DNA of 64,000 bases from Raillietiella orientalis (lineage: Eukaryota), in assembly GCA_036172245.1 (NCBI GenBank), contig JAYWIR010000018.1, positions 806,001-870,000 on the forward strand, given 5' to 3'. The translations under genes were made by a program, and so were the position numbers. The notes under the pieces were generated by a model that worked only from the letters and a program-made list of their open reading frames with translations, searched no databases and was not told the DNA's origin. How positions within the stretch are numbered: position 1 is the stretch's first letter; every line of letters begins with the position of its first letter. This document shows, piece by piece, positions 1 to 53,333 of the stretch.

Positions 1-1335
1 CACCCTGGCTTCTACAGTCGAGAATTTCTTCAATGTGCTGAGTCGTGGTACAGGACTCAGGGTGCACAGGGCGAAGTCGTCCGTGATGCCAGTCGGTGCG
101 GTGGGACAAAGGGAGGTCCCGAGTCCGCTTGAAGGACTTGTGCGCTCCGCATGCGGCCTAGGTCTCCTGACGCTGTAATGGCTGGAGCTGCAGCTCCAGT
201 TTCGAAAACTTGTTCTCGTGGCAAACTCTGGAGCACCACCTGGTGCCAACCTACACGCCTCCTCGTCCAGCAAACCACCGGCAGCGTGGGGCTCGCGTCT
301 TTCCTTACACTCCGTCGCCGCCATATCTGCCACTGCAGATAGAAGCTTCGGAGGGTAGCCGCGCTGGCGAGGAAAAACACGGGATGGATCTCCTGCCGCT
401 TCGCGAACGGTACTGCCTGGTTACAGGAAACTGTTCGCACGTGGGCCAGAATCCAGGAGCCAAGCGCGAAACAGGTGCGACATTTCCTGTATGCGCATAA
501 CAGCTGCACGCTCCGGGAACTCCTGGAAGATCCTGTGAAGAGTACGTGGCAAACAGAACCTCCCTCGCCGCCGCGCTGCCCTCCCTTGGAGAGCACATGG
601 GCAACAACCTTGCGGCAAAATGGGAGGTTACTGTGGAAATCTCCGGAAGGAGGAAAGGACTGGGCTATTGGACGACAGGCCAGCTCACCGACGCTGCGAC
701 TCCGATTGCTCGACCTCGTGGACTTTTGCGTGCTACTGGGTCGCAAGACCTGCATTGGCCCCTGGTGCTCATGAACTCCTGCACCCTCCCATTAAAGTGA
801 CAGAAGTCGGCATTAATGCTGCTGCACTGGGGGATCCCGTGCAATGCCCATACACATCATTGGACAAGGGGAGGTATGGATCCAAACTGCAAGGTGCGGG
901 GAGCGGGAATCCTTCCCTCACCTTCTAGTGGACTGTGCTGCCCTCTGACTCCTTTGGGGACGCTTTGCCGCGACTCTTGGAACACCCAGTGGAAACGCCA
1001 GAGGAGACCAGGACGACAGAGACGCCATCAGTTTTGCTGTCCTCTTCATGAGGGCAGCGTCAAGAAGGTCCTATCTGGGAGTCTTGAAACAGGAAGTTGC
1101 CGGTATCCTTACAAGGATGCAGCTGGATAGTGTCCTCTCCAGTACACATTCCAGATTCCCTCCCGGACCCTTCCTTCTTTTTGACTGCATGTTCTTTGTT
1201 TTATGCTTTTTTCTTTTTGTTTGTCACCCCTTCTGTGGTGCCGAGGCGAACGCCGCTGGCCTGCGTGACAGTTCCTGGCAGATTCCTTCTCGTGGTTAGT
1301 TCCCCGAAACCGGCAAGCAGTGGGGTAAATTTATT
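1..1335 (+). mobile_element. 3' part of an L1/Tx1-type LINE ('family B', copy B1): ORF2 C-terminus and 3' UTR; 5' end lies outside the window
   Basis: Frameshifted translation gives WTTGQLTDAATP...LLHWGIPCNAHTHHWTRGG.DPNCK...(ES)FPHLLVDC, a degenerate C-terminal CCHC finger. Nucleotide blocks are shared with 25300-26040 and 52700-53240, e.g. atctgggagtcttgaaacaggaa at about 1073 and 53053, and gccgaggcgaa in all three UTRs. Confidence 0.85.
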
Positions 1336-1750
1336 CATGACAAAGTTTTACAGTTTCACCGACATTGGCAACGTAGTTCCCTCAGGTGAACGTATTTCAT
1401 CAATGGATTCCCACAGTTCGCTTCGTAGCGTCTGCAATGCCACCATCAGGGTGGTTTTCTCGGAATGGGTCACTGTGGGATAGAGGGCGGTAGATTCGTG
1501 CTTGTCACTTCCGCGATCTTTTGCAGGATGTAGCGGTAAGTCCAGGCGGGTTTCTTACCTCAATTCCTAATCCCAATTTCCCGCTTGATCAGGCCTTGGA
1601 AGATGTTCACGGCAAGAACCATGTTTCCCGTATTCCTCATTTTCATCCTTCTTATCACGACACTCGTGATGAATAGGGAGATCGGTGCACTGTACCATGG
1701 GATTGTATTGCTGGACATTAATGTTTCCGTCGAACATTCCCGCTAGAATG
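1330..1750 (-). mobile_element. Short coding-like fragment ending in AATAAA; probably the 3' end of a third LINE family, or a 3' transduction
   Basis: The minus strand reads APISLFITSVVIRRMKMRNTGNMVLAVNIFQGLIKREIGIRN*GKKPAWTYRYILQKIAEV..., then KTTLMVALQTLRSELWESIDEIRSPEGTTLPMSVKL*, followed by AATAAA at 1335-1330. No diagnostic domain. Confidence 0.4.
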
Positions 1751-2439
1751 TTTATTGTGTTTTTTTTTTTTTGGTTCGCTAAGTACCTCAGAGCCGGTAG
1801 CGTGCCTCGCGGCGCACGTGGCTCTTTTAAGCACACTGTTTTGTTTCTAAGCTTCTCCCCTGCGACAACCCCACAGGGGGGGCGTGTGATTCTTCACGAT
1901 AGGGGGCATTCCGGGATGGAGGTCCGCCCTATGAATCCAGGAAGGACTCGGAGTCCGTTCCTCTCCCGCTTGGGGAGAGAAACGCACCTCCCATCCTGAT
2001 TGTCTCCGAAGGGGAACCCCGAAGGGAATCTCCTTCCTCATTCTCTCCGGAGGGACACCCTTCTCTAACGGGGAGGGGCTGTCCTCTCCATTTCATCTTT
2101 TCCGAAGGGAACCCGGAAAGGATCCGCTCCTGTTCACTCCTCTGAAGAGAACCCCGAAGGGACGCTTCCGAAACTCAGAAGAGGCGCTGCAGCTTCCCGC
2201 AAGGAATCGCTCTCGCTTGGTTCCTTGTGCACTCTGTGAAGAGGCGACGACTCGGAGGACCCCCGCAACAGGGGGGATCTTCTCCTTTGAACAGCTGGAG
2301 AAGTGTCCGTGAGAGCTCCTGCTCCATCTTGAAACAGGAGGGGTCCCCCGGTGAGGGGGATACTCTCTCCGTTGCACGACAGGAGGGGAACTCCCCACTC
2401 TATTCCTGGAAGGACCCGAAGGTCTCCCATTGTTTCGGT

Positions 2440-4467
2440 CTTTATCGGGGGCCTCCGGCTTAATCCACCACCGGTGCCACGCCCGAATGATTAGGTCAAC
2501 CAGTGCCATTGCAGAAGAAACTCGGAACCCAACGACGCAGTGGAGTTTCTGCCGGAGTATTCGAACCCGCGACGCAGGGTGCCACGCACGGAAGCCTTAA
2601 CCACAAAACCTCCAACGCGGGCAGAATGTTTGCCATTGTAGTTCTCAGTAGACCTATCACTACCTTCAGCATGCTCCAGTCCTGGTGCAGCGTCGGGCAA
2701 GTGAGGACGTGGAGCTGTGTTTCCTTGCTTCCACACCTTGCAAGCTCGTCTTGGATGTTAAGACCAAGCTCGTCTCGTCTTACCCGTCCAGTGCGCTATC
2801 CTGTCTTCACTCAGAATGCCTCCATGGTAAAATCAGGAGGAGATTGTCCTGAGTGTCTGGCGGTATGTTGCTCTCAAAGACTAGTTCTAATCGCCTGCAG
2901 GTACAAAGTACGTGTCCCATGGCGATTGGTAGCAATGGCGAGGACGTGTTTTTCCTGATGCTGCTGCTTCATTACGTCGCAGATGTTAGCTTTGGTGACC
3001 AGGATCCAAGTGTTGGCCTGGTGTTTCCAAAGTTTGCGCGTCTTACTGGTAAATCTTCCAGTCGTGGTTTGAAGGTAGTGAAACAGTCGTATCCTGTGGA
3101 CGTTGCCACTGGTCGCGAACTGCTCGCATTTTTGTATGATCATTGTTGGTCTCTGGAACATCCACCTCCAAGTGTCCCTGGATACAGATACAAAGTAAGG
3201 CAGGACCATGACCAATTCTTCCCTCCACAGCTCTTTGCTCCACGGCACAATTTTGAAGCGTTGTTTGGCCACTAGTGCCTGCATACGTTTCCACATGGGG
3301 TCAATGGTGCCCCAATCTCCATGTTTGCCTATGACCCTCGACATCAGGCCCCTCGAGTGGTTGATCAGTCTCGAGTACGCCCTGTGGGCTGCATAAGGTC
3401 ACTCTTCCTAATCGGCACTTAGAACCAGGAGTGTTTGGGCATCCAGGAGATCGACTGTCTGGGGCAACGACTTCATCCCGGTTCCCCTTTCTTCTCGCGG
3501 TCGGCACAGCAACCTGAGCCTGATACGCGGCTCATATTCCTTCCAGATCTGCAGTTTTTCCACTTCCGTCTTCATCTTCTGATCGATGCGGCAGAAGTGA
3601 CCCCGAAGAGCACCTTGGGAAGGAGCACACCATTCCACAAGTTGTCCCTCTGCTTCATGCTGGACTCGACTCGGACGTACTTCGTTCCTTCCTCTCGGAC
3701 TTTCGCTAAGATCTCTTTCCATTGAATCTGCCGCGAAGACACATCCCCAATATGGATTCCTAAATATTTCACGTCGTCCACCACACGGATTTCCCTCTTC
3801 GTTAAGGAGGAGAGGTCCAGGATCCTGATGGGCAGAAGGAGTGACTTGCGGATGTTGATCTTTAAGCCCATTGCCTTCTCCATACTTTCCACTACACCAA
3901 GGAACGCATGCTGATCCTTCTTATCCTTCAAGAAGAAGAGCAAGTCGTCCGTGTATGCGAAGTGCATGAGCCTGTGGTCGTCCACAATCAGTCCTTGAAG
4001 GAGGTTCCTTCGATCGATCAAGGACGACACCGCTTCCATGTACAAGACGAACAGCATCGGACTCAGGGAGTCTTCTTGTCGCATTCTCCTTGCCATCCGG
4101 ATGCCGTCCATGTCGCGTCCATTGATGGTGATCTTACATTGCTTTTCCTTAATGTCATTCCGATGTAGTCGCTGAAGTGTCCTGGGTAGCCCAGTTTACG
4201 CAGGATCTCCAGCAACGTCATGGTCTACGCTGTCGAAGGCGTTCTCCATATCCGTGAAACCCAGCACCAGGTCGTTGCCGACGTAGCGGCTGTAACCGAT
4301 GGTGGTCTGGGCGCACTTCACGCTGTTGGACGTGCGGCAGTCGGTCACTGCGCACTTCTGAACTGGAGAGACGGTCGTCTGTAACGCTAAGCTCAAGCGG
4401 TTGGCCCAGATCTTAGCCAACCACTTAAAGTCGGTGTTCAGGATGAAGATAGGCCGCCATTGGTAGA
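2440..4467 (-). pseudogene. Element A ORF2, 3' half: reverse transcriptase and C-terminal CCHC finger (frameshifted)
   Basis: QWRPIFILNTDFKWLAKIWANRL, DMENAFDSVDH, RQEDSLSPMLF, FAYTDDL (YxDD variant), MGLKINIRKS, VKYLGIHI, LCRPREERGTG, CGSKETQLHVLxCP. Confidence 0.92.
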
Positions 4468-4843
4468 CGTGCGTTTTGAAGCTTTCCTGGACAAAGGTCA
4501 GGAAAGCTTCAAAACGCACTAAGGCAATATGGGAATTTGAAAACGTGAAACCAAAAGTAAGAATACATGGAGTAGTTCTGGATAGTACGGTGAGGAGGAA
4601 ATTTGTGGCTAACATCCGATCCATCCAACGCGAAAAGATGTGGCTTTCCTTGATAGAAAATCACTCAGAAGACCAAGGGAAAGCCATGCGCAGCGTTGGA
4701 TTACATAAGGATTCCAGCTAATTCCTTACTTCGGGGGACCACATTCGGTTCGCCGATTATCGCTTCATCCACGCCGATATGGGGAAGGCTAAGCGTCCTG
4801 CCTATAAGAGGAGCAGCAGGAAGATCACCAGCCGATCGCATAT

Positions 4844-4860
4844 GCCGAAAGTGTAACTGT
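4844..4860 (+). repeat. 17-bp target-site duplication (left copy; right copy 6957-6973) flanking LINE B2
   Basis: gccgaaagtgtaactgt is identical at 4844-4860 and 6957-6973. Removing the insert restores the CRKC...H....C finger. Confidence 0.95.
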
Positions 4861-6956
4861 TTCCCATCCGGGTGCGCCGGGGCGTTTATTTCTAAACTAT
4901 CCGGGAACAGAGTTCCTGGACAAAGGACACAGAAAATCGAATAGAGGGATCCCCGACACGCAGGTCGGTAAACCGAAAGTCCGGAACGGGAGGGAAGGGA
5001 CCAAAAATACACATATAAAAAATATAAATAAAGATATGGGGAGGGAAGGGGACAGGGGTCTTTGGTTTCGGCCGTTCCTTTTCTTCAGAACCGGCGGGGG
5101 ATGCCGGAGATCTCGCTCCTCACGTCTTCTGGAAGATGGGCCCACTCGTCAGCCGACGTCATGTTCTTGTCGGCTATTCCGGTGGCCTGTTCGTCGAATC
5201 GCCTGCTTCTCCAGCTCTGGGTGGGTCTTGTCGATGGCTCGGACGCAAAAGGCCGTTGCAATAACAGGCCGCCTGGAGTGAAGAAGCGGCGCATCAAGTC
5301 TCTTGCGGTGTCCCCCTGGTGCAGGAGAGCTGAGGCCATCCTCCACCACAGTCCTTGGAGGACACCGCAGTCCAAGAGCAGGTGCGGGAGCGTTTCCACT
5401 TCTCCACACCTTTTGCAGTTCGGGGAGGCAACTCCCCCGGAAACACGGTTCGTCCGCTGGTTGGAATGAAAACCCCAATGCACCAGCAGGATGACGTCCT
5501 GTTTCCACAATAGGGGGAACACAGAAGTGTTCGAGGACGAGGAAGGGACCACAAGTTCTTCGGGGGGCACACTTAAAAGTTCGCTCCACCGAAGGAGTCC
5601 CTTTATGATGCTGCGAGGCGTGGCGGCGTCTGCCAGCTCGCAAGTCCTCCAGCCGCCTATGGGTCGGGTTGCTCCTGCGATGGTGCAGGCGACCTCGCCG
5701 GTAGGCAGCTGTCATCACTTGCCCTGAGCGCTGACAGTGCGTCGGCGAGGGGCGTGACGGCCAGGCGAGTCCACTTCTCCTGGTTGTTCCACCGTACAGT
5801 ACAGAGAGAGATTGGCGCAACGAAATTCCAAGAGGGAAACATCCTGTTGCTTTGCCCAGGCATGCAACAGTTCCTGCCGCCAGGCGTTAAAGTTCGTTGG
5901 GCGGCAGGAGATCCATGCCTGGGCTACCAGGAGCCGGTAAAGCGGTTTCAAGGGGAAACCGAAGCTTCTCGTGGCGCGCTTCGTATGCGGCAGCAGCGAG
6001 AGAAGTCCTTCGCTGCCGGTGCAGCGCCGCAGGAGCAGGCGCACGGGAGCACACCACAGAGTGGACCAAAGGTTGGCGCACAGTGCCAACATGCGTAACT
6101 GCACTTGCAGTTCTATCCTCTCCAGCGTCAGGATGCCCAAGCCGGCATCCCGACGCGGAGGCGCCAAGTCTTTGAGGCGGATCCTGGACTTCGCGAGTCC
6201 CCACAGAGCGTTTCTCAACAGGCTGTGCGCCTGGAGCTTGGCCGAGTAGAAGGACGGACAAACAAAAACAGGTGGCATAAGAGGGGAACAACGAAGGTGT
6301 TCCAAACCGAGGCCCGCTCCGGCAGGAGGAAACTGCCAAGGTGGAACGGGCTTAGAGCATTCGTAGCCTTCTAAAGGCAGTCCGACCACGCTTCCACTGG
6401 ACTGATGTTCCCCAGCGGGACGCACAAGTATCGGAAAGACGTAGCGGTCAGGATCCCCTGGCGGATCCAGTCGGACTGCCCCTACCACGCAGCACCACCA
6501 GGAACGACCACGCTCTTGCTCCGGTTTACGCTCATGCCCGCTTCCCGCCGAATCAGCTCGAAGAAATCCTCGAGACTGGACGCCGGGGTGGTCATGAGTA
6601 AAAGGAAAGCAGGTCATCGGCATAGGCCGCCACGGACGGCGTACCTGGACAAGAGCTCGGCAGGCTGGCGAGCGTCAGCCTGTACGCCCTCAGCACCAAC
6701 TCAAAGAAGATGCTGAAGAGCAACGGACTTAAACTGTCTCCCTACCTGATGCCCCGCCTCACCGGCACGCCGTACACGTGGCAGCCGCTGAAACAGATCG
6801 AGATGAGCGCGTGGCACCAGCATGCGCGCAAACAGGCCACGAGGTGCACCGGGAGACCAAGGCGTTCCAGGAGCTCCAGAAGAGATTCCTGGTTCACGCA
6901 GTCGAACGCCTTGTGGAGATCGACCGCGATCGCCAAGGCACCCGGCGTTTCCTCAG
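4861..6956 (-). mobile_element. 5'-truncated L1/Tx1-type LINE (family B-related, copy B2): RT, CCHC finger and 3' UTR
   Basis: AVDLHKAFDCV, RRGIR*GDSLSPLLF, AAYADDL, DLAPPRRDAGLGI, CKRCGEVETLPHLLLDC. Ends with AATAAA plus 24 nt directly at the TSD. Confidence 0.93.
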
Positions 6957-7643
6957 GCCGAAAGTGTAACTGTCAGGATGAGATATTACCGCACATACTG
7001 AATCACTGCGTAATGCACTTCCCGATGTACACCTCTCGACACAATGCACTCGTGCTGAAACTGCAAGATGTTGCCACAAAGGAAGGAGGATGCAAGCTAT
7101 TTTCAGTGGACCAGAGGATACAAGGAGTCGACTCCCTGTTGAGGCCGGATCTCATACTGGAAAAACAGAGAAAATGGATCATAGTGGGCGTTACTTGCCC
7201 ATTTGAAGGCAAGAAAAACGCGTTCCCCGAAGCAAGAAAAATCAAGGAAGAAAAATACCAAACTCCAATCCACAGTATCAACCAGTCCGGCAAATTTGCC
7301 ATCATGCAAGTATTCATCGTGGGAGCCTTAGGGTCGAAGGATCCAAGAACGACACTGTACTACGACTACTGTGAATCAAAGAGAACAACGCAAAAAAGTT
7401 GAGAAATCTGTGCGTATCCAGTTGCATTAGGGCAAGCAGGGACATCTACTGGACCCACAGACTAGGTCATCCACCCGACGATGCGAGCGACCCTATAAGT
7501 TATATTATGAAACAGGGACAACCCCAAGACCAGTCCACTACGAACTAAACAGCAGTTCGTCAATCATATTGGAAAAGCTGGAAGAGCAGGCAGAGCCAGC
7601 AGGAAGGATTCTGCAGTTGTAACTAAAATTGATTTAATAAAAA

Positions 7644-9032
7644 AAGATAGGCCTCCATTGGGAGATCCGTGAAAGATCACCTCCCTTCGGAAGCAGTCTC
7701 ATCCTGCTTTCATAGAACGGATCCGGGAGCTTCTTCTTTTCTTTGATGCAACGCGTGAGCTCGTGGAACAAACGCAGGTAGGCGTGCAGGTACCTCCGAT
7801 AGTGCGAGATGGGCACGCTGTCGGGACTCGCCACCACGTCCGTGCGTAGTACGGCAAACGCTGCCTTCACTTCTTCTGGGGCGATTTCCTCTTCCATGCG
7901 CTGCTGCTGCTGCGGGAAGAGTCGTTTCTGCAGACTGCAGAAACATCTCTTGTTTTTCGTGCGATGAGTCTTCTCGCCGTCGGAAGTGGGAGGCGTAGTG
8001 TTGGGCCTCCATGATTTCTTCCGGCGCATGGCACATCCGATCCTCGTGCTGGATATAGGAGATATGCATCTCCAGATTCTTCTTTTTCTGCACGCCGACT
8101 TCTCCTTTCACCGGCGAAAGACGCACCACTGCTCGTACTGTTTCCAGTACCGCGAGAGGGAGTGGTCTTGGATGTTCAACTCCCGATTTGCTTCCTGTCT
8201 CCAGCTCTTCCTGCCATACTGAAGGTTCGCAAACAGGTGGATGGTGTTTCATCCGATCCCAGTCGTCGACCCTGCGAATGTTGACGTCCCGCAAAATCAA
8301 CTCGATCAGCTGCTGGTGATCGAGAAACGTTGCAAACCACTCGGGCGGCCCTAAAGCCGTTTTCCGTCTTCAAGGTGAACTGCACCAGACGGTGATCCGA
8401 GAGTAGGATTTGCGTATCCCGGAACCTCTGGATGCGGTTTCCTACTTCTTCGCTGTACAGGACGTGATCGATCGGCTTGTGTCTAGCAGTTAGTCATTGC
8501 AGTCCGAACTCGTCAGACAGCAGCTGGTACGCCCGTCCTCCTCGTGAATCGAACTGTTGGTCTTCGTATCTTTGCATGTTGAGGTCACCCACAACGACGA
8601 TAATGTCTTTAGGGACGGCTTTGGTGCGGAGTAAATCTTGCACGTCTTCCGCGCATCGGTGTTTCAGTTGGTGCGGTCCGTACACGTTTACCAGGATCAG
8701 ATGCACGTTTCCGTACCAAGACATCCGTACTCCGACGATGCGGCCGGGCCACGGGCAGAGGGATCCAGGACGGTGTGCGCAATGTCGTTTTTGACGAGAA
8801 TCGCTACACCTTTCGTCAGCCTTTCTCCCTGGCTCGAGAGCATCCTGGCGTCCAGTCGCCACTCTAGTTCGAGGCAGATGTCATGCCTCGCCTCATGAGT
8901 TTCCTGGAGGCATACGTTGCCGTCACACTCGATGGTGCGCGTGACCCTTCTTCTCTTGTCTCGGTTCATCATGCCGTTGATGTTCCAGGAGGCGATCTCA
9001 AGGCTCCTGGCAGACGATAGGAAGGAGACCAT
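7644..9032 (-). pseudogene. Element A ORF2, 5' half: APE endonuclease and linker up to the start of RT (frameshifted)
   Basis: MVSF...EIASWNING, VCLQETH, KGVAILV, LVNVYGP, VVVGDLN, IDHVL, SDHRLV, then EEEIAPEEVKAA, SPDSVP, RLLPKGGDLSRISQWRPI. Confidence 0.92.
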
Positions 9033-9038
9033 TGGTCT

Positions 9039-10434
9039 TTATGTTATTTTTCTGTTCTTTTGTTTCGGGGAACTGACTATTTTCCTTTCGGATGATAGTC
9101 TTTCCCCTGCTTCACTTTCTGATTCGCTAATTTCTGGATTTTTCTTTTCCTGAAGTTAATACGCCGCTCTTATCACTTTTCCTGCTGACCTTGTTTCTTG
9201 TTCGCAAATTTTCAATTTTGCTTCACCTAGCTTGTCCTGCATCTTAGTTTTGCGTCAACTAAAGTTTTCTGGTTCTCATCTTGTAGCTCGGCCAGGCGAA
9301 GTGCATATTTTTCACGTTTCACCTCCGTGTTTCTGGGACAGATCTTTTCTGCGAGCGTTGCCACTTCCTGCAAATACTCTCCGGCTTCCTGCTTTTCGGT
9401 TTCGGTGGTTTGGCTTTCTTGTTCCTTCCCTACCGTCGGAATAGAAAGTTTCCCTACCGTTACTTGCTGCTTCCTTCGTTGTTGAGTTTTCTTCTTCTGT
9501 TGTTTTGGCGGAGGTTCTTCTGCTGTAACCCTGGCTGGAACCTTCTCTTGCTGTTCTGCTTCCTTCCTTTTCCTTTCCTCTACCTCCGGTAGGGGTGGTA
9601 GTCCTCTGGCCACCAACCAATCCGAATATTTTTCACATTGCCTTTTTAGATGACCTTCCATCTTGCAATGGTAGCATTGCGGAGGTCTATTGCATTCTTT
9701 TGTGAAGTGACCAGTTTGTCCGCATTTAAAACCTTGGAGCAAGCACCCACTCGGTGTCCAAACTCCTTGCATCCTGCTCAGAAAATTGGTTGCAGTCTAA
9801 ACCTTGTAGTGACATCCTGCGAATCTTGGTCAATTGTCATGACACCTGGAATTTTGGAATCAGCAAACAACTTTACTTTCACTCTCGCTTCTCCTGAGAA
9901 AATTTCTTCCGCATGGTTGCGGAAAGCAACCTCTTGAACTTCCCCATATTGGGAAAAGAATTGCCATATTGTTTTCTTTGTTGTACTAAAATGTATCCCG
10001 GAGAGGTAGACCGCTGTGTTGGTCAGCTCTCCGAGACCTCGCAACTTCCTCCCGTTCAATGTGATTCCTTGCTCGATCAGGAATTCCCTTAACTCCTCGT
10101 CGGAGGTATACACCGCGAACCCCGTTGCCGAGATGATTGCCTTTATGTTACCGAAGTTGAAGTTGACGTTAAGTTTGTGAAATGCTACGTACATGTCTCG
10201 AATATTCCCGAGACGCAGCATCCCTGTTTTGAAGGTGACCTGCTTTACATCCTGGTCAACCTTCCAGACTGGTTCATCTTCCTTTCCTACTTTAAACATC
10301 GCCGGCCTTACTACTTGATTTACTACCGCCGGGGGTGCTGCTGCCACTGCCGCGTAGGACAGCGGTTGGGTCTGGCCATTCCTTAGCCCCGCCTAGGCTC
10401 CCTTCTTAGATGGGCCTGGTTCGTCCGAATCCAT
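9039..10434 (-). pseudogene. Element A ORF1: gag-like nucleic-acid-binding protein (RRM-like region and three CCHC zinc knuckles), with stops and frameshifts
   Basis: ATG at 10434 gives MDSDEPGPSKKGA*...LSYAAVAA. RRM-like VYLSGI...IWQFFSQYGEVQEV. Knuckles (*)AGCKEFGHRVGAC, (G)FKCGQTGHFTKEC, CYHCKMEGHLKRQC. K/E/Q-rich tail ends just before the ORF2 ATG at 9032. Confidence 0.9.
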
Positions 10435-10473
10435 GGGCCTGGACGCTAGCAAAGCGCTACACGTGCTGCTTCT

Positions 10474-10520
10474 CAAAAATACTTTCCCGGATCGAGAGCA
10501 CCTCGAAGCCAGGTAAGTAT
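10474..10520 (-). ncRNA. U1: U1 snRNA-like 5' fragment (about 47 nt) forming the head of element A; not a complete gene
   Basis: Minus strand from 10520: ATACTTACCTGGC ttcGAGGtgctctc GATC cgggaaagtattttt. The first 13 nt equal the conserved U1 5' end. GATC falls at positions 28-31, as in U1 loop I. Positions 17-27 can pair with 35-45. No loop II (ATTGCAC) or Sm site follows. Confidence 0.7.
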
Positions 10521-10574
10521 GGTAAGTATATAAGTGATGTGGCAGGATCAAACGTCCTGCCACAGACGTTTATT

Positions 10575-10606
10575 TTTTATAAATAAACGCCCCGGCGTGA
10601 CCAGAC
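10575..10606 (+). mobile_element. Displaced 3' terminus of a family B LINE (probably the end of copy B1)
   Basis: ttttataaataaacgccccggcgtgacc matches the termini of B2 (aataaacgccccggcg), B3 (26109) and B4 (53304). B1 lacks exactly this piece at 1335. Confidence 0.7.
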
Positions 10607-10790
10607 GTTAACCAGTGCCGTCATTCTGCGAGGGGGACTCGGAACCCACGACGCACCCCCCGTTTTCGGTGTCGATCCTTCCACGGGTGGGATTCGAACC
10701 CGTGACGCTTGGCACCGCGCGAGAACACCGCAGCCGCGCACGGCCGCCAACGCGTGCAGAATAGCTGGAGCCACGTGCTTCACAAGCATC
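10607..10790 (-). mobile_element. Family A LINE fragment (ORF2 C-terminus)
   Basis: Similar to 2495-2630: ttctgcacgcgttgg...cgggttcgaatccc...gcgtcgtgggttccgagt...ggcactggtt. Confidence 0.75.
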
Positions 10791-13744: not shown

Positions 13745-14230
13745 CGGTCTTGCACTTTGGAGAAGTATCCACCAGCTCCATGGTACGAGATGGAGGGTCT
13801 CCCCCAGCCACCGCCACCCCCCAGAATGGGGGGTGGCGGTGGCTCCATTTTCACAACCGGAAGGGAACCCCGAAAGGCTCCTTGGTGTCCTGGGAGAACC
13901 CCGGAGGGCCAACTTGCAAATCCTGGTCAGTCAACGGGAGCACCCAGGGGTTTCCGTCTTCCACCATGCCGCACCCGAAATTCGTGTGCTAACGAGCGTC
14001 ATCTTGCGGAGCGGGGCTCGAAACCCACGACATGCACCCTCGTTCTCGGCCTCGATCCTTCCCCGTAAGGGATTCGAACCCGCGACGTTCGGCGCCACGA
14101 GCGGAGATAGCAGGCACGCGGCCGCCAGAGCGGGCTCCCACGTGGAGACGCTGTTCGATGGGTCCCTGAGGGATGCAGCAACTCTTCTTGAGTACTTGGC
14201 GAACCACGGGTCGTCCTCGAGGGTCCTCTG
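13745..14230 (-). mobile_element. Family A LINE fragment (ORF2 C-terminus and start of 3' UTR)
   Basis: The reverse complement matches 10630-10750 and 20200-20495, e.g. gaccctccatctcgtaccatggagctggtg vs gaccctccgtctcgtaccatggagctggtg. Confidence 0.75.
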
Positions 14231-20129: not shown

Positions 20130-20790
20130 AAATGCCCGCGTCTGAGGTGCCCAGGTCGGAAGCCACGTGGTCACGGTCTCCGCGCGTGGCACCACCAAGC
20201 ATCGCGGGTTCGAATTCTCGGCAAGAATCAACTCTGAGTGGAGATTGGGGGAGGTGCATCGTGGATTCGAATTCCCTCCGCAAGATGACGCTGGTTGGCC
20301 TGCATTCATTCGGGCACTGGTAGAGGTTCAAACCTGATGCCCCCGATGAGTGGCTAGGACAATGGGAGTCGACCTCCGGGCCCTTCCAGGAATCAAGGAA
20401 TGGGGTTCTCCTCCAGTTGTGCAAAGGAGCGGACCCTCCCCTTCGGGGGGGGACCCTCCGTCTCGTACCATGGAGCTGGTGTGTTACCTCTCCAGAGGGC
20501 AGAGAAGCGCGCCACTTCCTTCGTGGGGTGACCTGAGAAATTTCGGAAGCTCCCTTCGGGGTTCTCTTCAGAGGAGCATACAGAGAGCGGTTCCCTTGCG
20601 GGTTCCCTTCGGAGAAGAAGAATGAAGCGGACCCCTCCAGGGGTCCCTTCGTGGAAGGAGACCAGGGTGGAGGTTCCCTTCGGGGATCCCTACCCAGGCT
20701 CGAGAGGGACGGTCTCTCTTCTCCGAAGCCCTTCCTGGATTCATAGGGTGGCTCCCTTCCGGGGTGCCCCCTATCTTGAAGAATAAAAAA
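20130..20790 (+). mobile_element. 5'-truncated family A LINE: ORF2 C-terminus and 3' UTR
   Basis: Colinear with the reverse complement of 1890-2600 (cccccgat, acaatgggag, ccttccaggaat, ccttcctggattcataggg, tgccccctatc). Ends in aataaaaaa at 20782-20790. Confidence 0.85.
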
Positions 20791-33650: not shown

Positions 33651-36600
33651 TTCATGTTTTTCTTTGTTTTCGGTTTTGTTTGTTTGGACTGCCAGGAACT
33701 CCAGATGCGCCCTTCTATCCCACGGAGGGACACCCAACAGCGCCGTCACAGGAGGCTGGAAAGGCTTTTTTTCCCCACTGCAACGCTGCCGATGCGTTGC
33801 TGAAGCGAGGAAAGCGAGCACACCCAAGAGAATCCCCCCTGATTCCTGACTGTCCAAGTCAGCAGCCCGTCCGGACGTGAGGGTGCCCCACGTCCGAAGC
33901 CCGCAGTCCTCCCAGCGCCCTATCGCGGAGCTCACCAAACCCAGCACGCGTCCAGAGCGGCGTCGATGCTCACAGGGTGAGTCGAGCCTGCGGGAGGGCG
34001 CCCTGGCTGCCGACGCAGGGAATTTCGGGTTGGACGATCTCCCAGCGGACTCTTTTTCTACTTTTCTACCCTTGTCAAGGGGAGTGCTAACCTTCTCTCC
34101 TTTTCTACGACCGGCGGACTCTTGGGGATCGGCAAGCACTCCGAATCCGACAGGGGACTCCCCTGGCTCGCGGGTGTTGCCTGGAGAATCCCCGCGCGCA
34201 AACCGCGGTGCGTTCCTACGCGCACGTTTCAGGTCCTACTCCTGCGCTCGGGCGGTGCCCGCCGGAGACGCTGCTGGCGGCCTGGGAAGAAGGTGCGGGA
34301 GGCGCACAGGTGACGCCAGGCTGCATCCCCCACGGGTTCGTCAACAGCCAGACGATGATCGCGGTTGCGGGGTGACTCCGATAGAGAAGGAACACCAGAA
34401 ACCGCCGCACCGCCCACCAGGGCATTCCTGGAACTCATCGCACCAGCCGAACCGGGCGAGCAGCTCGAGGGGACGACCGGGACGACGGTCGTGGTGGACG
34501 TCTTCCACTCTGGCGAGCGCACACCTCCAGTGCAGGAAGGTGGCAGGTCGGAGGATGCGAGAAGAAACTGGCAACGAGGTCCTGGACTCCAGTTCGCTCC
34601 TAGCGACCCGCGCACGCCGAGCAGAGACCTCCAGGAAGGTACAGCAGCAGTCGGATCCCTGGGAAGATGCCTGCTGACCCGGGAGGCGGCGAAGAGTCGG
34701 TGAGGGAAGAGCCGAATTGATAGAACCGAACGGAGGACACCGGAAACGAAACCCCCGGGATGTGAGTTCGCAAGGGTCGCCGACCGGGAGAGGAGGCCTT
34801 CTAAACCAATCGCAGGAAGAGTGGAAAAAGAGGGACTGCAGAAGAACGGAAGGATCTCTGCTCGACCCGCGTCCGGCTGCTGTCCCTCATCAGGGCACCT
34901 TTGTCCGCGTTCTTCAGCGGAAAAGCCGACGACAGTGCAAACGCATCTTGAAGGCCTCGGCGGCGGAAGTTCACGGGGAGAAAGAGGCAGGAATATGCCG
35001 GGAATTTTCCTCCGTTTCCCGACGGAACTCCCGTTCGCAAGGGAGCTGCATCGCGGGTCGCGTGGAACGGACCCGCCTGGCACTCGCTTCCGGAGCCTTC
35101 GCAGAACCGGCAGGTGCGAACGTGCGGTCGCACTTGGCGGGGCGCGGTCGTCCGTCCATGGCGCGGTTTCGCGCGCCCCAACGAACCCTCTCCTCGACTC
35201 TTCGAACAAAGGAGGCACACCCTCGTCTGGAAACGCTGCGGAAAGCCTGGCCTTCGGATCCCGCCTTACCTCGGCACGTAGGCCGTTCCCGGACCCGCCT
35301 CCGCATGTCTGCCCCTGGTCCCCAGAACGCGTCCGCAGCGACGCAGGAGCAACAAAGTGGCAACCATCCCCTCCCCCCCTGCCGACGGTCGCGACCGAGG
35401 GACACCCGAAGGCAGCAACCCCGTGCTGGCGTGGCGCCTCGTCTGCCATCGCATCGATGGAACGGCCCGGGGCGCACGACGTGCAGCAGCCGCGCCACCA
35501 ACTCTCTTCTGAGCGCTTTCATTTTCCCACGCGCACACATCCGCCCTGTCCCCAATCCCACTCGAGATGAGGCTTCCCCCCGCCTCCATGTCCTGTTGGC
35601 GCGCTTTCAACGCGGTGATTCATTCCTACCCTGCCCACCTTTCGTGGCCCTATCCTGCCGCGAGCTCGGGCTGCACCTCCGTCGCCATTGACATCGCTGG
35701 GAAGGGAGGAACGGCCGCGGCGGGGAGAAGAAAGGAAGTGACGGGGGGAGGAAGCGCTCCTTCACGGGCCGCCCATTGCCCATTGTGCGCCGCTCCCCGT
35801 GGAAAGAGGCCACCCCGCGGAGGGCGCGAGAAGGGCTTTTGTCGCCTGCAGAGTCCTTCGACGTCTTCTCCTCGGCGCGCGGGGAGCCAAGCGCTTCCTC
35901 CTCCTCCTTCTCCTCCATCTCCCTCTCTTCCGGTTCCTTTCTTCCCTCCCCCCATTGCCACGCTGCCTGTTTGCTTGGCGCTGTCCGTGCACGCTGCCGC
36001 TTACCTCTCGCGAGCGCGCAGCGAGACCTCGCACCCTGCCTCCCTGCGAACGCACGCTCGTGCGCAGGAGGAAGCTCGCATCCCGCACGGGAGGGAAGGC
36101 GCATTTCCATGACTCCCCGAGCGAGACGGGCGCCGACGGGCGAGCGATGCCTGACGTCGGCAAACTACGCAGCCCGCGCCAACGGGCAGCAGAAGAGGGG
36201 GGAAAGAAAGGACTCTCCACGATCGCGTCTCGGGAGCCTTCACTTTCAAGCCTTCATTTGGCACCCCCTTTCCGCGGGAAGCCATGCGACCCACGAAAGA
36301 AGAGCGAGGGACCGCCCGTCGCCATGGAGTGGGCGCCGGGACTCGCCACCCGTTCGCACCTCCGCGTCGCTGCTGCCATCTGCCCGCAGGAAAGTGCGCG
36401 CCGCAGGAGGTCTCCGCGACTCGCAGGTGCCGTGGGCCCACGGTGGGGAGAACCGTCGAAAGATGGACCGATGCGCCCCTCTCGCTCGCCTTTCGGTGCC
36501 GTGCGCAGCGCGCGATGCGCACCCCGCGACGGAGGTCTCAGAGGACGGGAGACGCGGCTTGCAGTCTGCTGCTGCGGCCCAACAGAGGATGCCCGCTTGC

Positions 36601-39600
36601 ACCACCCAGGGACGCCCGGTGCACCTCCTCCTGGCAACCGCCGCCTGCAAAGAGAGCTACGACACTCGGAGAGCATCGTTGATCGATGGGGGTGCGGCGG
36701 AGACGCGAGGAAACAAACGCCGCGAGTCCCCTCGAGGAGTCCCCTGTACGCCAGGACTCGCCTCCCACCGCGGCGATTCTCCGTGGTCTCCGAGCTGCGG
36801 TTGCGTCCCGGACAGCATCGGCTGCAGCCTCCGCGCTCGTGGGAAGCGTGCGGCGCCTCGGGCATTCAGGGGGTTCTCCAGTTCGCGTGCTTCGTGGCGA
36901 GTCGCCTCCACCGCCGTGGTGGCCCCCCGCGGCTGCGCAGCACCCGAGGCCGCTCGACTTGCGTGATCGCGAATCACAGCGCCATCCGCGAGAAGGCAAG
37001 CCGGTTTGAGGGCGCAGCACCAGCGCTCGCCTGCGGCATGGCGGCCGATCCGAAAATCCAGGGCTTTCTTCCTGTCGCCCTGCGGCGATAGGAATGCAGC
37101 GGGCAGAGAACAGCGGCAGGTTCTTCCTCGTCCTGTGTGCAGGGGGAACGCGTCCGCAGGCAGGAACTCCTGGGGAACGAAGGGAAGCAGAGGGAAAGAA
37201 TTTCGCGGAGGAATCGGAATCATCAGAGATTTGAGAGTGAAGACGAAAGGAGCTCGCGAGGAAGGCATCTCCCTCTGTCCCTCTCCTCCACCGCTCCGCA
37301 TCCCTGGGAAGGGTGACGCCATTTTCCCCTTGGGTGTCCATCGTCTCCGCGACGATGGCGGAGAGGTAGGCGTGCCAGTGGTCCTGCCCGTTTTCTAGGG
37401 CCGGTCGAAGCCCCAACAGCGGCTGCCAACGCGGCAGCAGGCGGGCATCCCGCAAGAAGGGGCGCTTGTTGACGCCACAGGGACGGTTCCCCGGGTGCAG
37501 AGGGACCAAAGAGCAGCAGAGTTCGCGAGTGGGTGCGGGAGAGAGCCGGCTCGTCTGCACCTGGCACACTGAGGGTCTTCCCCTCCCCCCTTCCTGAATC
37601 AAGAAAGCTCCGGAAGAAGCGACGCGGGCGAATGTTGTCCGCAAGCGAATGGCGCCGGAGAGAGGGGGGGGCTGCCAGTCCCGGACGTGCGACCTTCCCG
37701 TCCCAGGTCAACGGGCAACCCGAAGTTCAATCGGTTCACTCCCGTTGCAACCGAACGAACCCACGAGCCAGCGAAGATCCGGCTGGCGTGACGGGAACAG
37801 CAAAGGCTGTGTCAGGGAACGACGGCAGGTTCCTCCAGCAGTCGTAGCTGCTTGACCCGCAGCCTCCACCAGCAGCTTCGGGTCCCGGAGGGAAGCTTCT
37901 TGCTGCTTCCTACGCTGCCGCGAAGCTCTCCACGGAGCAGGCGACGGGTAGCAATCGCCCCGGGGAACGGAGGTGGGAGCTGCCGGCCGTGACGGCACAA
38001 GTGCCTGATGGAAAAGCGCGCAGGTCACCCGAAGGATGGTAGCTCTGAAGAAGACTGCCCGAGGTCGACCTTCCCGGGCGGGAGAGGGAATTTGGAGACG
38101 ACGCCGTGTGCTCGGAAGCGCGCCCCAGTCGCCCACGGGAGGTACAAAGATGGAGCCGCTTCTGTCCGAGGCATCAGCAGGGAAGCATCCGAGAAAACAT
38201 CCCGTTTCGAACACAGGATGAAGGCGAACTTCAAAGCGATGAGCCAGCGGCTGGCACAGGGGACGAAGGCTGTGGGTGGAGGAAGTCTCCTGGAAAGGGA
38301 AGGAACGAACTGACGGGGACGGGGATTCGGAAACCTTTACGAAGACGCGGCGGCCTCGGAATGGAAGCGGTTCCTTCGCCCGGCTTGCTTAGCGACGAGG
38401 AACGCGGTGCTCGCCATCCACCATCCCTCTGCGGAAGAACCCGCGAGGGCGCGCGCGGCGACGGGGACGCCGGAAAAGAGCAATGAAGGAAGAGCAAAGC
38501 CGGGATACCGTTGGGTGGAGGCAAAACGCGCCCAGGCGAAACCCTTCGATCGGCCCACACGGAGGTGCTGCTGCGGAAAGAACGCCGACAGCACCGGTTG
38601 CGAAGAAGGTGGACGAGGATGACCCCGACTCGACGATGGCTCCCTCGATGCGCCCAAGTACGCGGTCGAGCAAGCAACCGCGGGCGACGAGATGCCGAAC
38701 GCGTTAACCGGGACACAGCTGCAGGCGCGAGCGGGCGGGCGCCGTCCGGTCCGCGATGGGAGGAGCGGGTCGTCTGCACCCTGCCGACCACGCAGGTGCG
38801 CAGCAACCGCAAGCTCAGCAATGCGGTGGACTTCCGCCGAGCGGAGCAAACGGAGGAGGCCTTCAGCAGCAGCAGGCGAAGGCCGGGAGCCTCCTTCCAC
38901 CCCCCACCCCCTTCCATCCCATCTTCAGTAGTCGTCTGCCTTTCCGGAGGGGGAGAGGTCTTCGAGAGGGCATGGGCGGGCAAAGGGGGAAAAGAGAGAA
39001 TAGGAGGGAAAATGAAAAGGGAAGACCCGCGATGCTGGCAGCGCGGCGTTTCCTGCGCTCCCCGCGCGGGGCTGCTCCGATCGGGTGGGAAAAAGGAGAG
39101 GAGGGGGGACAAGCGCCCTCGTCCCGCGCAGCTGCTGCAAGCCCTACCGATTGTTCCCGAAATCGATTCGCTTCCGCCGACACGCTCACGAGGAGGGGCG
39201 ACGGCCCTCTCCCGGTCCCGTGCCGCTCTCCGCGCCGCGTTGGCGCCGTAGGGCTGCCGGCGGCTGCCGGCATCTGCCGCCGGTGCGCGAGGAAGGGAGA
39301 GAGGGTGCGGCGGGTGAACCCGACGAGCTGATGATGCAGCGGGAAGGCGGGTCGAGGCGAGGAGTGGCGGAGGAGGGGGTGGCGTGGTGTGGCGTGGCAG
39401 AGCCACCGTGAAGGCTGTCTGCGCCTCTCCCTGACCACCCGCGGCTCGTAGAGGAGTCGCGCTTTGCGGAAAAGGGGGAAGGCGTGGCTGAGGGGAAGGG
39501 GAGACCCGGATTCCCGCGAGGGAAGGAAGGAGGAGCAGTTCGAGCGGTTTCCGCGGGAGCCCACGAGGGAAGGCGCTCGAAGCTGCTCGGGAAGATGGGA

Positions 39601-42600
39601 AGCTGCCGATGCTCTCGGCCCCCTTCCCCCGAGATTGGAAAGGGCACTCCTGGCCTGGAGGGATGCCGGTCGATGGAGAGAGAAAATCGCGACGTCGCGA
39701 GGAGAGCGCCGACCGGTTCCCGGGGCGATGTTGATTCTCCGCAGGGCTGCCTGGAGTCGAGGGCGCGAGTCCAGCCGCTCGTGGAACGTAGGACCGCCTG
39801 CGGGTCGGTCGTATGCCCAGAGGGACCGTGGCTCCCGACTTCCCGATCGCATCGCAGCGAAGTGCCCTGGGACTCGGGGCGCGTCCGAGAGGTGCGCTGT
39901 GGCTCCCTCGGGCGGGGCCAGAGCGGATGGCGAGCGAGGCGGGGAAGCGCGGCGCGGTACGCCCGCTGTGCGCCCCGAGTGCAAGAAGCAGATCGGGGGA
40001 GGGGCAGAGAGGCATCCCAGCAGCGGCCGTCGTCGAGCAGAGCGCGCGGGTGCCGGCCCACGAGATGAGGTGCGCCCCGCGTTGGACCTTCCGTGTATCG
40101 AGCACGCGGGTTCGAACCCCACCTCTAACCGAGGAAGGATTCCTGAGCCCGCGGTGGAGAGCTCCGACCTAGGACCGCTAAGTGGGCGGGAAGAGAAACC
40201 GGAGGCATCTTTTCCATGGCACCGACCCCGAACGAAACTGCGACCACGCTCTCGGAGGAGCAGGTCTTGAGAACGGCGGGGTCAGCAGGTCACGGCGGAG
40301 GCCGCATCGTTGCGCCTGCCTGGAAGGCGTCTGGGAGAGGCTGCCGTCGAGCCAAGAACCGTTTTGCGTCAGCTAACGCGATACCATGGTTGCGAAGCCG
40401 TTTTTTGTGGGGCCAACGGAGGTAGCGGGAAACGGGTAAAGGCATGGGTGAGGGGGTGGAAGCTTCCCGAAGGAGCAGCGTCGATTGTTCGTGCGCGAGA
40501 GTCAGCGGCGGTTCCCTTCTTCCGCAGCCGCGACGTCTTCACCTTACCTTTCTTTACCCAGGAGACGCTGCTTCCGCTTCCTCTTGCTTCCTTCCCGTTC
40601 CGCTCGCTTTCTCCAGGCCGCAGGCGCGCGTCCCGAAGCATCTGCTGCCTTCCACCGCCAACTCGGAAGTCTTCCGTCCCTCGAGCGGAGAGGCGAAGAG
40701 TTCGATCGGAGTGCGATCCTGAGGCTGCGGCGTGACTTCTGATGGTGGGGAGTGTCCGCTGCCCACCAGCGGGCTTGGATGGCCGTGCGCTCCCAGGAGG
40801 GAAAGTCCGAGGCGGAAGCCGTGTGGAGCTGTGCGGTCTTCCCACCCACCCGGGGCCGGAGCTCCGGGCCGCCGATGACGTCGTTTTTACTCTCGGAAGG
40901 CACGTGGCTCCCGCTTGACCAGCCGTTTCCCGCGAATAAGAAATGAACCCCCTCTTGTCTGCGCCCTGGGCCGCCCTGCTAAAGGAAAGCAAGAAGGAAG
41001 CAAAATGGGAGTGGCAGCAACGCGGACGAGTCAGACGCCCGCACCCGAAAGGGAGGGGTTGGGAACGCACTGGGGAGAGTCAACTCGAGGCAGGGGCGCC
41101 GAGGATAATGAGTGAAGACGGAAATAAGTAGGGCGGTTTGGTGGTGGGGGTAGCGCGCGTGCTCCAGGGCATGCACCCTCCGAAGGGAGCGGAAAGGCAC
41201 GTAGGGAAGGGGGATGAGGTCGCAGATTTGCTTGCCAGTCTTTCGTGAGCGGTCCAGAGGTCTCCTCTTTCCTCGCCTTTGGGTTTGGAACTTACGTCTG
41301 GGGCAGAGGCGGGAACACCACCCTCGGAAGACGGCGGACCCGCCCTTCTTGGACGCTTTCGACGCTGTCCGCACGTGGACGTTGTGGCCGGTGTGAAGGA
41401 GGAGACTGGCTCTCCCTGGGGGCATCGCTGCAGGGTGCCTCCATGCTCTCTTGCAGCCCCGCTGCGAGATCTGGAACACTTCCTAAGAGCGTGCGAAAGG
41501 TTTGCCATAGCAGAGCGACGGACACGTTGCTCGGGGTTGCTGCCTGGTGGGGCGCGCTGGCATTGTTCGTCTCGGCGTAGGTCGGGTCGCTTCGCGAGCG
41601 ACTTGCGAGATGACCAAGGAAGAGGAAGGAGGGGTCCATCGGGAGAACCTCGACCTTGGAATTCCTTCGGGGAACTGCAGAGGAACCGATGTTCCATGGC
41701 GAGCCCTGAGCCAGGTCGTTGAGCGCGCGACCGCGTTGCTCTCCACGGTGTGGCGAGTGCGGTAGTGCCCTCCAGCGGCGAACCACCCCTGCTCTGCCGC
41801 GGCAACGGATTACATCTTTTCTTTTTCCTGACCATGCGCGAGTTACCAGACGACTCAATTTCCGAGCGATGCTCTGAAGTGGCTCCCTATATTTCGTCCT
41901 AACGTGCTATCAAATCAGGACGTGCCATAACTGGAAGAAGAATGTGTGACCTCTCGCTGGTGTGAGGCGGGTCGCCGACGGTAGCTTTGTGCCTTTGCAC
42001 CTGCGGCTCCGAACATTGCCAAGATCTCTCCTCCTTCTTCAGTCCACGGAAACTTGGCCCGGGCCCTCGCCTGCGGGCGTCAACGAGATTTCGAAGCAGC
42101 GACCGGAAACCAGCAGGTCGTCGTCGTCCCCTCCTCCTTCAGATGAATCCTTGCGTTCCTTCCGGAACCAGCACCAACAATCCCTTCTCTCCCCTCCCGG
42201 TTCTTTGCCATCCCATCGCTCCGCGCAGGTGCGGCCCCTTCATCGTCCGGCGCGAGAGCGCGAGGTGCTCCGAGCCCTGCTGCGCACTCGGCCAACCCAG
42301 TCAACTCTCCCGTCCAGGAAAGGCGGAATGCGACCCGGCGCGTACCGGGATGGGGAGCGAAGGGAGGACAGGCGCGGTGTCGTTCTGCACGACGCCACGG
42401 GGCGCGCCGCAGCGAGAGGCGGACCGGCCGCTGCTCAATGTCCGAAGCGACGCGACGCCGCTTCCCGCGCGGAGCCGGCGCGGCGCCTGCGCTCTCTTTC
42501 TCTCATGGCTGGGTGCGGCAGTTCCACGCGCCCCGCTTTCTCCGCACTGCTTTCCAGGTCGGCGCCTCCCCGCAGGGATGCTGCGCCGGTCGCTCCTCAT

Positions 42601-52459: not shown

Positions 52460-53333
52460 AGCTGCAAGATCACCTGGGAGGAGCTCTGGAGTGCAAGTCC
52501 TCCAGGTTTGCATGCTGAACGCATGCCTCCCTCACCGAACCAGAGGTGACGGTGGACAACTTGGACTCGGTCACGACCCCGAGTGCCCCAACAAACGGAC
52601 TTCTGCGCTTACTACGAATTCCTCCGGAGGAGGTACAGTGGTCCCCAGCGTGTTGGGACAGTGCTACTTTCCTTTTGAAATGGTAGGAGTCGGCGACCCA
52701 CTGTTGCATAGAGGCCTCCCGTGTAACACCCGCCGGAACCATTGGACCGGGGGAGTGTAAGTCCGAACTGCGGCAGGTGAGCAGAGAGTCCCTCCCGCAC
52801 CTGCTCATGGAATGTGTTGCCCTCCGTCCCATGTGGGAACGCTTCACCGCGTCCATGAGCATCCCTGAGGACAACCCCAGAGACGTTTTAAAGCGCCTAT
52901 TCTCGCGCGACGCCCTCACGCCGGCCGCATCCCTAGCAGCACTTTGCTGCCTACGCGGGATCGTGGCTGCATGGAGCAGCAACATCAGAGGAGATAGGAC
53001 CAGGACGACAAGGGTGCTGCCCTCTTCATGAGGACATCGTCAAGATGGTCTCATCTGGGAGTCTTGAAACAGGAACTGGCCGGCATCCTTACAAGGAGGC
53101 AGAGGACACTCTTTAGCACACAGTGATCCCTTGCGGAACCCCTCCATTTTTTGACTGTATGCTTTTTGTTTTTTTCCTCTTCCCCTGTGCTGCCGAGGCG
53201 AAACTTGCTGGCTTACGTGCCAGTTCCCGGCAGGTTCCTTCCATATATCCGTGTAAGGTGGCAGGACCAAGCGTTCTGCCACTGTATGTTAATTTTTTAT
53301 ATAAATAAACGGCCCGGCTCAACGGTGTCAACC
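52460..53333 (+). mobile_element. 5'-truncated family B LINE (copy B4)
   Basis: LLHRGLPCNTRRNHWTGGV, RESLPHLLMECVALRPMW, RDVLKRLF...LAALCCLRGIV, VLKQELAGILT. UTR shared with 1190-1290. Terminus AATAAA-cggcccggctcaacgg. Confidence 0.88.

Follow-up and report, generated by a model that had tools for sequence, protein, structure and literature searches.

A decayed L1/Tx1-type LINE that begins with a U1-like 13-mer, possibly acquired by template switching onto U1 snRNA

The window, that is, the whole 64-kb stretch of DNA analysed in the present study, has a GC content of 57.6% and demonstrates no depletion of CpG (observed/expected 0.94) along with a strong depletion of TpA (0.43). Its minus strand carries a LINE that starts at position 10520, ends with a poly(A) tail and comprises 5563 nt without a nested insertion (Table 1). 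The stop at codon 14 and the single frameshift in ORF1, together with approximately ten more stops and frameshifts in ORF2, indicate that the element is dead. In its structure, the element, which belongs to the L1 superclade, is nevertheless complete. It had been described as full-length in a first-pass annotation, which is correct in the structural sense, from the leader to the poly(A), but not with respect to integrity, because of the in-frame stops, the frameshifts and an interruption of 3180 nt.

The assignment to the L1 superclade is based on the reverse transcriptase (RT), which is closest to L1-type RTs. The best match among solved structures was human L1 ORF2p (E 3e-11), with R2 behind it (E 2.7e-6), and the best named library matches were plant L1-type RTs and one Xenopus RT, all at about 30% identity. 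An exhaustive search of representative proteins using the RT returned 2529 matches at E<=0.001, and the best of them had 30% identity; a word-index protein search with the RT piece found no longer protein at E<=1e-5. The N-terminal endonuclease of ORF2, which is broken by frameshifts, was matched with L1 endonuclease structures at E 0.003 and with the Exo_endo_phos family at E 0.04 and 14.1 bits, a score below the cut-off of 24.5. The search for relatives of the ORF1 fragment yielded 324 pattern matches in metagenome contigs, 14 in viral contigs and 236 in genome contigs, none of which was confirmed.

As for other copies within the window, the BLASTN search with the region 1700-10700 revealed only a 3' fragment with 67-70% identity and two repeats of the flank, and the TBLASTN search with 13 ORF pieces gave one weak match. 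The 3' fragment is located at 20167-20784 on the plus strand, corresponds to the LINE 3' region 1889-2604 in the opposite orientation and appears to be the remnant of a related LINE family.

The nested insertion splits the RT of the LINE after the codons for QWRPI. Its ORF at 6626-7402 matches the C-terminal part of the R2 retrotransposon protein, which contains the restriction-like endonuclease (PDB 9nl3, E 5e-5). Both the insertion site and the length of the duplication at its ends, 18 nt, are unusual for an R2-type element.

Table 1. Coordinates of the LINE, its leader, the nested insertion and the 5' flank
Feature	Position	Strand	Basis
5' flank outside the LINE: repeat module containing a hairpin, second copy at 53258-53318	10538..10596	-	
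U1 nt 1-9 (ATACTTACC) repeated once more in tandem, adjoining the 13-mer on its upstream side	10521..10529	-	tandem-repeat call
13-mer ATACTTACCTGGC, putative first bases of the LINE insertion	10508..10520	-	single match in the window; Rfam U1 consensus 1-13
Imperfect 42-nt hairpin (predicted), pairs nt 1-6/37-42, 8-12/31-35 and 15-19/25-29	10479..10520	-	folding; inverted repeat
GATC at nt 28-31, where U1 has GAUC in its loop I	10490..10493	-	sequence; Rfam consensus; U1 of L055
Leader, 86 nt; the Rfam U1 model aligns nt 1-15, a Sm-site-like AUUUUUG (nt 41-47) and a terminal hairpin; 13.2 bits	10435..10520	-	
ORF1: RRM and two CCHC zinc knuckles; TAG at codon 14, frameshift near 9790	9227..10434	-	RRM_1 E 1.1e-5; zf-CCHC E 3.4e-7, 2 stretches
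ORF2, 5' part, spread over several shifted frames: APE-type endonuclease, recognised only weakly, and beginning of the RT	7644..9038	-	L1 endonuclease chains, Pfam
Target-site duplication of the nested insertion, 18 nt, upstream copy (CCAATGGAGGCCTATCTT)	7644..7661	-	
Nested insertion, 3180 nt, on the strand opposite to the LINE, with an A-rich tail at its end	4464..7643	+	junctions
Downstream copy of the 18-nt duplication (CCAATGGCGGCCTATCTT), 17/18 identical; the RT frame of the LINE resumes	4446..4463	-	
ORF2, 3' part, with stops and frameshifts: core of the RT (RVT_1, 3572-4660), C-terminal region	2093..4463	-	RVT_1 E 3.9e-12 and 2.7e-6
Poly(A) tail, 13 A, the 3' end of the LINE	1760..1772	-	

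No target-site duplication was found between the flanks of the LINE, so its 5' boundary is not fixed independently. The module at 10538-10596 is an independent repeat, and the 5' end of the LINE must therefore lie within the 104 nt between 10538 and the ATG of ORF1. Two repeat modules are located upstream of the LINE, the one just mentioned and another at 10619-10700 with its second copy at 13997-14080; the second copies are about 80% identical. One of the modules contains a 10-bp hairpin without mismatches, after which comes an AT-rich word, and the other contains a word similar to a tRNA T-arm, GGTTCGAATCC, although ARAGORN calls no tRNA there.

Within this span, the minus strand at 10520-10508 reads ATACTTACCTGGC, which is identical to the conserved 5' end of U1 snRNA and corresponds to positions 1-13 of the Rfam U1 consensus. 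It is the single match in the window on both strands when up to one mismatch is allowed; dinucleotide-preserving shuffles gave 0.01 matches on average. The first nine letters of the 13-mer are doubled in tandem (10529-10521 and 10520-10512; period 9, 2.0 copies, 100% matches), and the first base of the doubled unit is exactly U1 +1. The minus strand across the head reads ...CCTGCCACATCACTTAT ATACTTACC ATACTTACCTGGCTTCGAGGTGCTCTCGATCCGGGAAAGTATTTTTGAG..., and on the plus strand the doubling appears as two copies of GGTAAGTAT at 10512-10529. The ATG of ORF1 (10434) is located 86 nt downstream of the start of the head and is preceded, 24 nt upstream, by an in-frame TAG. The GATC at nt 28-31 of the head (10493-10490) occupies the same place as GAUC in the Rfam consensus and in a real U1 gene found in metagenome contig L055.

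The first-pass annotation had reported the 13-mer 86 nt before the ORF1 ATG and the GATC at nt 28-31, and both are present as claimed. The proposed pairing of nt 17-27 with nt 35-45 is feasible as well, at 10 of 11 positions, four of which are G-U. The statement that a copy of an L1/Tx1-type LINE begins exactly with the universal 5' end of U1 is supported.

The similarity to U1 past the 13-mer is a different matter. The Rfam U1 model (RF00003) matched 10446-10520 with 13.2 bits (E 0.73 in 701 nt and E 0.16 in 156 nt), whereas the gathering score is 69.5 bits and the real U1 of L055 obtained 130.8 bits with the same tool. The model skips stem-loops I-III in the leader, and the locus does not qualify as a U1 gene or pseudogene. 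When the 13-mer was removed, no Rfam U1 match at E<=10 was left in the leader. A comparison with the Rfam U1 consensus by eye gave 4/14 identical positions for nt 14-27 and 3/16 for nt 32-47 (together 7/30); apart from GAUC, the agreement of nt 14-47 with the consensus is, as read from the alignment, at chance level. Nor was the similarity of nt 18-85 to the U1 of L055, which has the first 17 nt in common with the head, above that of shuffles, 1891/2000 of which scored at least as high. The identity with the printed 26-mer of a published U1-like head (nt 20-45, PMC4494074) was 11/26 by eye, which is not significant.

The first 17 nt of the head were also searched for in metagenome contigs. The scan found 55 loci, approximately the number that arithmetic predicts by chance. 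One of them (1/55) is the genuine U1 gene of L055, and the other 54 seem unrelated and mostly prokaryote-like, as estimated by eye and from the identity of the next 43 nt. As the L055 gene demonstrates, UUCG at nt 14-17 together with GAUC at nt 28-31 does occur in genuine U1 RNAs. The contig itself, derived from a eukaryote, contains a tight 5S rRNA-U1-U2 cluster (159-277, plus strand; 458-617, minus; 951-1142, minus) with scores of 120, 131 and 174 bits. The Rfam controls on the 17-mer loci comprised four loci in one search, including L055, and five in another. A control locus sharing the first 19 nt with the head, but with an unrelated flank, gave no U1 match at E<=10 in 156 nt (n=1). The five further loci had no Rfam U1 match either when searched as a 5.9-kb batch, where the filters are stricter. 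It seems that the downstream leader adds a few Rfam bits, and only in combination with the 13-mer, as far as one matched control (n=1) can indicate.

The sequence comparison thus assigns 13 bases to U1 and puts GAUC in the right place, and the remainder is not demonstrably U1. If the head is derived from U1, the derived part would certainly include nt 1-13, possibly extend to nt 19 and reach nt 31 at most, with GAUC counted. The U1 head of the first-pass annotation stands for the exact 13-mer and the position of GAUC; U1 identity beyond the 13-mer is not supported.

The leader is predicted to be strongly self-complementary. For nt 1-49, the minimum free energy fold, at -19.0 kcal/mol, is a hairpin in which the 13-mer takes part (z -3.6; 0/200 shuffles were as stable). 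In the predicted structure, AUACUU pairs with AAGUAU, CCUGG with CCGGG and UCGAG with CUCGA. The arms, nt 1-19 and 25-42, enclose a 5-nt loop and differ at 4/19 positions by eye. The 3' arm at nt 30-42 (TCCGGGAAAGTAT) is the reverse complement of the 13-mer at 10/13 positions and resembles a splice donor. When the 13-mer was held fixed, an equally stable fold was obtained for 78/20000 shuffles of the remainder and for 45/5441 natural 36-mers of the LINE body; by these folding estimates the hairpin is unusual (about 0.4-0.8%), yet not extreme given the 13-mer. The stem-loop I of U1 (nt 17-27/35-45) was considered as the main structure and rejected, since with the mismatch left open it reaches -6.4 kcal/mol, compared with -19.0 kcal/mol for the other hairpin. 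The reading of the leader as U1 stem-loop I, suggested previously, is consequently outcompeted by a far stronger fold that consumes the 13-mer.

No other U1 match was detected at the 3' flank of the LINE or anywhere in the window (E<=0.05). The flanks contain no remainder of U1, which agrees with the earlier remark that this copy is not inside a U1 gene. Another snRNA is represented in the window: a 56-nt fragment of the U6atac 5' part with an A-rich end at 34055-34110 on the minus strand (Rfam 44.3 bits, compared with a gathering score of 33). Direct repeats of 13 nt, 12/13 identical, stand on either side of the fragment (34042-34054 and 34111-34123), which by its sequence features is a 3'-truncated snRNA retropseudogene with a target-site duplication. 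The presence of this retrocopy indicates that 5' parts of snRNAs get retrocopied in this genome by its LINE machinery. A degenerate sequence similar to 5S rRNA is located at 51031-51149 on the minus strand (50.6 bits, as against 120 for a real 5S gene) and could be a pseudogene or the head of a 5S-derived SINE.

The first-pass annotation left open whether U1-headed Tx1 families had been described. They have, in crocodilians: Kojima 2015 (PMC4494074) lists the Tx1-Mar families Tx1-2_Crp, Tx1-2B_Crp and Tx1-4_AMi with U1 heads and Tx1-11_Crp with a U2 head. According to the same paper, U1-headed crocodilian elements, including SINEU, show partial duplications and have had U1 sequence added repeatedly at their 5' ends; their origin is attributed there, as a proposal, to template switching. 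The element described here shares with Tx1-Mar, as presented there, the L1/Tx1-type LINE body, a U1-like 5' end that is not explained by residence in a U1 gene, and a partial duplication. Unlike in Tx1-Mar, the host sequence is not CpG-depleted, which excludes a crocodilian or any typical vertebrate; no Mariner target is evident, the nearest RTs are about 30% identical, no second copy was found in the window, and the U1-like part spans 13 to at most 31 nt versus roughly 50 nt in the heads reported in that source.

Mammalian snRNA-L1 chimeras and 3'-truncated snRNA retropseudogenes (Buzdin 2002, Garcia-Perez 2007, Doucet 2015, as summarised in PMC4494074) provide another comparison. As in those chimeras, the snRNA sequence here would be fused upstream of the LINE by an RT template switch, and the U6atac fragment is a typical retropseudogene. 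The mammalian chimeras in that summary usually consist of a long or complete snRNA and a 5'-truncated L1 or Alu, whereas here a very short U1 piece precedes a full-length LINE, and no target-site duplication was found. Among the features of an snRNA-LINE chimera, the junction and the poly(A) tail are thus seen and the flanking target-site duplication is not. Keno, of the Tx1 clade, and Utopia, which has a restriction-like endonuclease, insert in U2 genes (PMC4494074 and PMC4640811). Like them, the present element is a LINE associated with a spliceosomal snRNA sequence; Keno and Utopia, as characterised there, have the target snRNA gene on both sides, whereas this LINE has no U1 at its 3' flank. 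A search of full-text articles for further reports of snRNA-headed LINEs found only PMC4494074 and the work on mammalian U6 chimeras. U1-headed LINEs are therefore known as a kind; if the present case is genuine, its novelty lies in the distant host, the unusually short U1 piece and the self-complementary leader.

The anatomy described above is what the sequence contains, and from it we infer both a U1 origin of the head and a template switch. The explanation that we prefer, and to which we give about an even chance, is that the head is a short 5' fragment of U1 which the RT added by switching templates. In the course of target-primed reverse transcription, the enzyme would reach the 5' end of the LINE RNA, switch onto U1 snRNA and copy it to the capped 5' end. 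The switch may have occurred when the present copy arose or previously in a master copy; in the latter case the head would be a family trait, as in the crocodilian Tx1-2_Crp and Tx1-4_AMi. Speculatively, the leader word complementary to the U1 5' end (nt 30-42) could tether the U1 snRNP by the RNA 5' end and so favour the switch.

Template switching is consistent with the location of the unique 13-mer in the span where the 5' end of the insertion must be, with the start of the doubled 9-mer at U1 +1 and with GAUC at nt 28-31. It is also consistent with the 13.2-bit Rfam match, compared with none for the single control with the same first 19 nt or for the five 17-mer loci, with the U6atac fragment in the window, and with the U1 and U2 heads of Tx1-Mar published in PMC4494074. 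Against it speak the length of the demonstrable U1 sequence, 13 nt beside the heads of about 50 nt reported in that source, the Rfam score, far below the gathering score and dependent on the 13-mer, the 7/30 agreement of nt 14-27 and 32-47 with the consensus, the similarity to the U1 of L055, which does not exceed that of shuffles, and the lack of a target-site duplication of the LINE. The strong hairpin formed by the 13-mer would not be predicted either, unless the speculative tethering of U1 is true.

Some of these points would be expected if the 13-mer were coincidental, having arisen between the flanking repeat and the true 5' end of the LINE and having been picked out because very many windows were scanned. 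Nothing past the 13-mer is statistically U1-like by itself, 54/55 of the metagenome loci with the 17-mer seem unrelated, which demonstrates that such words arise by chance in large data, and no target-site duplication fixes the 5' boundary; moreover, the second copy of the flank repeat has a loosely similar word at the place of the 13-mer (7/11 after gapping). We regard a coincidence as unlikely, though not negligible. Even with one mismatch, 0.01 matches are expected per window, and arithmetic gives about 1.5e-6 per given 100-nt stretch; the 13-mer stands where one would expect the insertion to begin, the doubled unit starts at U1 +1, GAUC is at nt 28-31, the matched Rfam control is negative, and the class of LINEs published in PMC4494074 has just such a feature. 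The hairpin, which template switching as such does not anticipate, would be the direct product of an inverted duplication. Snap-back synthesis at LINE 5' ends is general RT behaviour, and the cDNA could have folded back at the end of first-strand synthesis or in the repair of the 5' junction, so that a near-consensus splice-donor word of the leader was copied back on itself. Since the U1 5' end by definition complements the consensus donor, the new 5' arm would mimic U1, and the palindrome would need no U1 RNA. The folding of nt 1-42 as one hairpin, with its two long arms, its 5-nt loop and a 3' arm largely complementary to the 13-mer, conforms to such an origin, as does the absence of significant U1 likeness outside the 13-mer. 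This origin nevertheless seems decidedly unlikely to us. The ancestral leader would need to complement U1 over 13 nt without a mismatch, two bases more than the 11-nt donor consensus covers, which even among real donors is rare; the three substitutions between the arms within the 13-mer must all fall in the 3' arm; the 4/19 differences between the arms are more than would be expected for a copy whose ORFs have a modest number of stops and frameshifts; the hairpin is not extreme once the 13-mer is given (78/20000 and 45/5441); and GAUC at nt 28-31 and the extra Rfam bits become coincidences. A literature search on snap-back synthesis by LINE ORF2p gave no usable source.

Two further alternatives attribute the 13-mer to different functions. 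An element that targets U1 genes in the style of Keno or Utopia could be co-transcribed from the U1 promoter, and the present copy would then be an off-target insertion of a read-through transcript beginning at U1 +1. The start of the head at U1 +1 fits this scenario, and PMC4494074 describes elements of the Tx1 clade whose targets are U2, U5 and 5S genes. It is very improbable, though, because the window lacks a U1 gene and the 3' flank of the LINE lacks the remainder of one, U1 is represented by 13-31 nt at most, and the U1-headed Tx1 families published in that paper target the Mariner transposon or LTR elements rather than U1 genes. The U1-gene-parasitising element envisaged by the first-pass annotation accordingly receives no direct support, with neither a U1 remainder nor a U1 gene in the flanks. 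On the plus strand, the same letters at 10508-10520 read GCCAG/GTAAGTAT and could serve a host transcript antisense to the LINE leader as a 5' splice site, whether ordinary or exapted. The word would be a perfect consensus donor, CAG/GTAAGTAT, doubled in tandem; but the would-be exon would consist of the antisense of the LINE leader and ORF1, the long ORFs of the neighbourhood contain no protein family (0 on 150), and the position of the word at the 5' end of the LINE would be left unexplained. A splice site of this type thus appears extremely improbable.

A bolder version of the U1 origin treats the head as a family trait. An L1/Tx1-like lineage in a non-vertebrate would have a stripped-down U1 leader, composed of the 5' end, AUUUUUG and a terminal hairpin, folded on a mimic of a splice donor and acquired independently of crocodilian Tx1-Mar; as a variant, it would be a true U1-gene-targeting lineage. 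This is improbable. If it is true, the element could use such a leader to take over snRNA-type transcription, capping or Sm-dependent trafficking, or to recruit or decoy the U1 snRNP.

If the head is both U1-derived and family-wide, the range of snRNA-headed LINEs would reach past crocodilians into a host of a very different type, and this would argue for switching onto abundant capped snRNAs as a general and recurrent route by which LINEs and their SINEs obtain new 5' ends. That one leader holds both a U1 5' end and a donor-like word able to pair with it would also suggest, in testable form, why U1 in particular is captured. A single decayed copy with 13 diagnostic bases is a pointer for a genome-wide check rather than a discovery.

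In the rest of the window, no Pfam family was found on any of the 150 long ORFs searched, out of 155 across 10.9-64 kb. The region 36000-48000 is a block with 64-67% GC and many long open frames on both strands.
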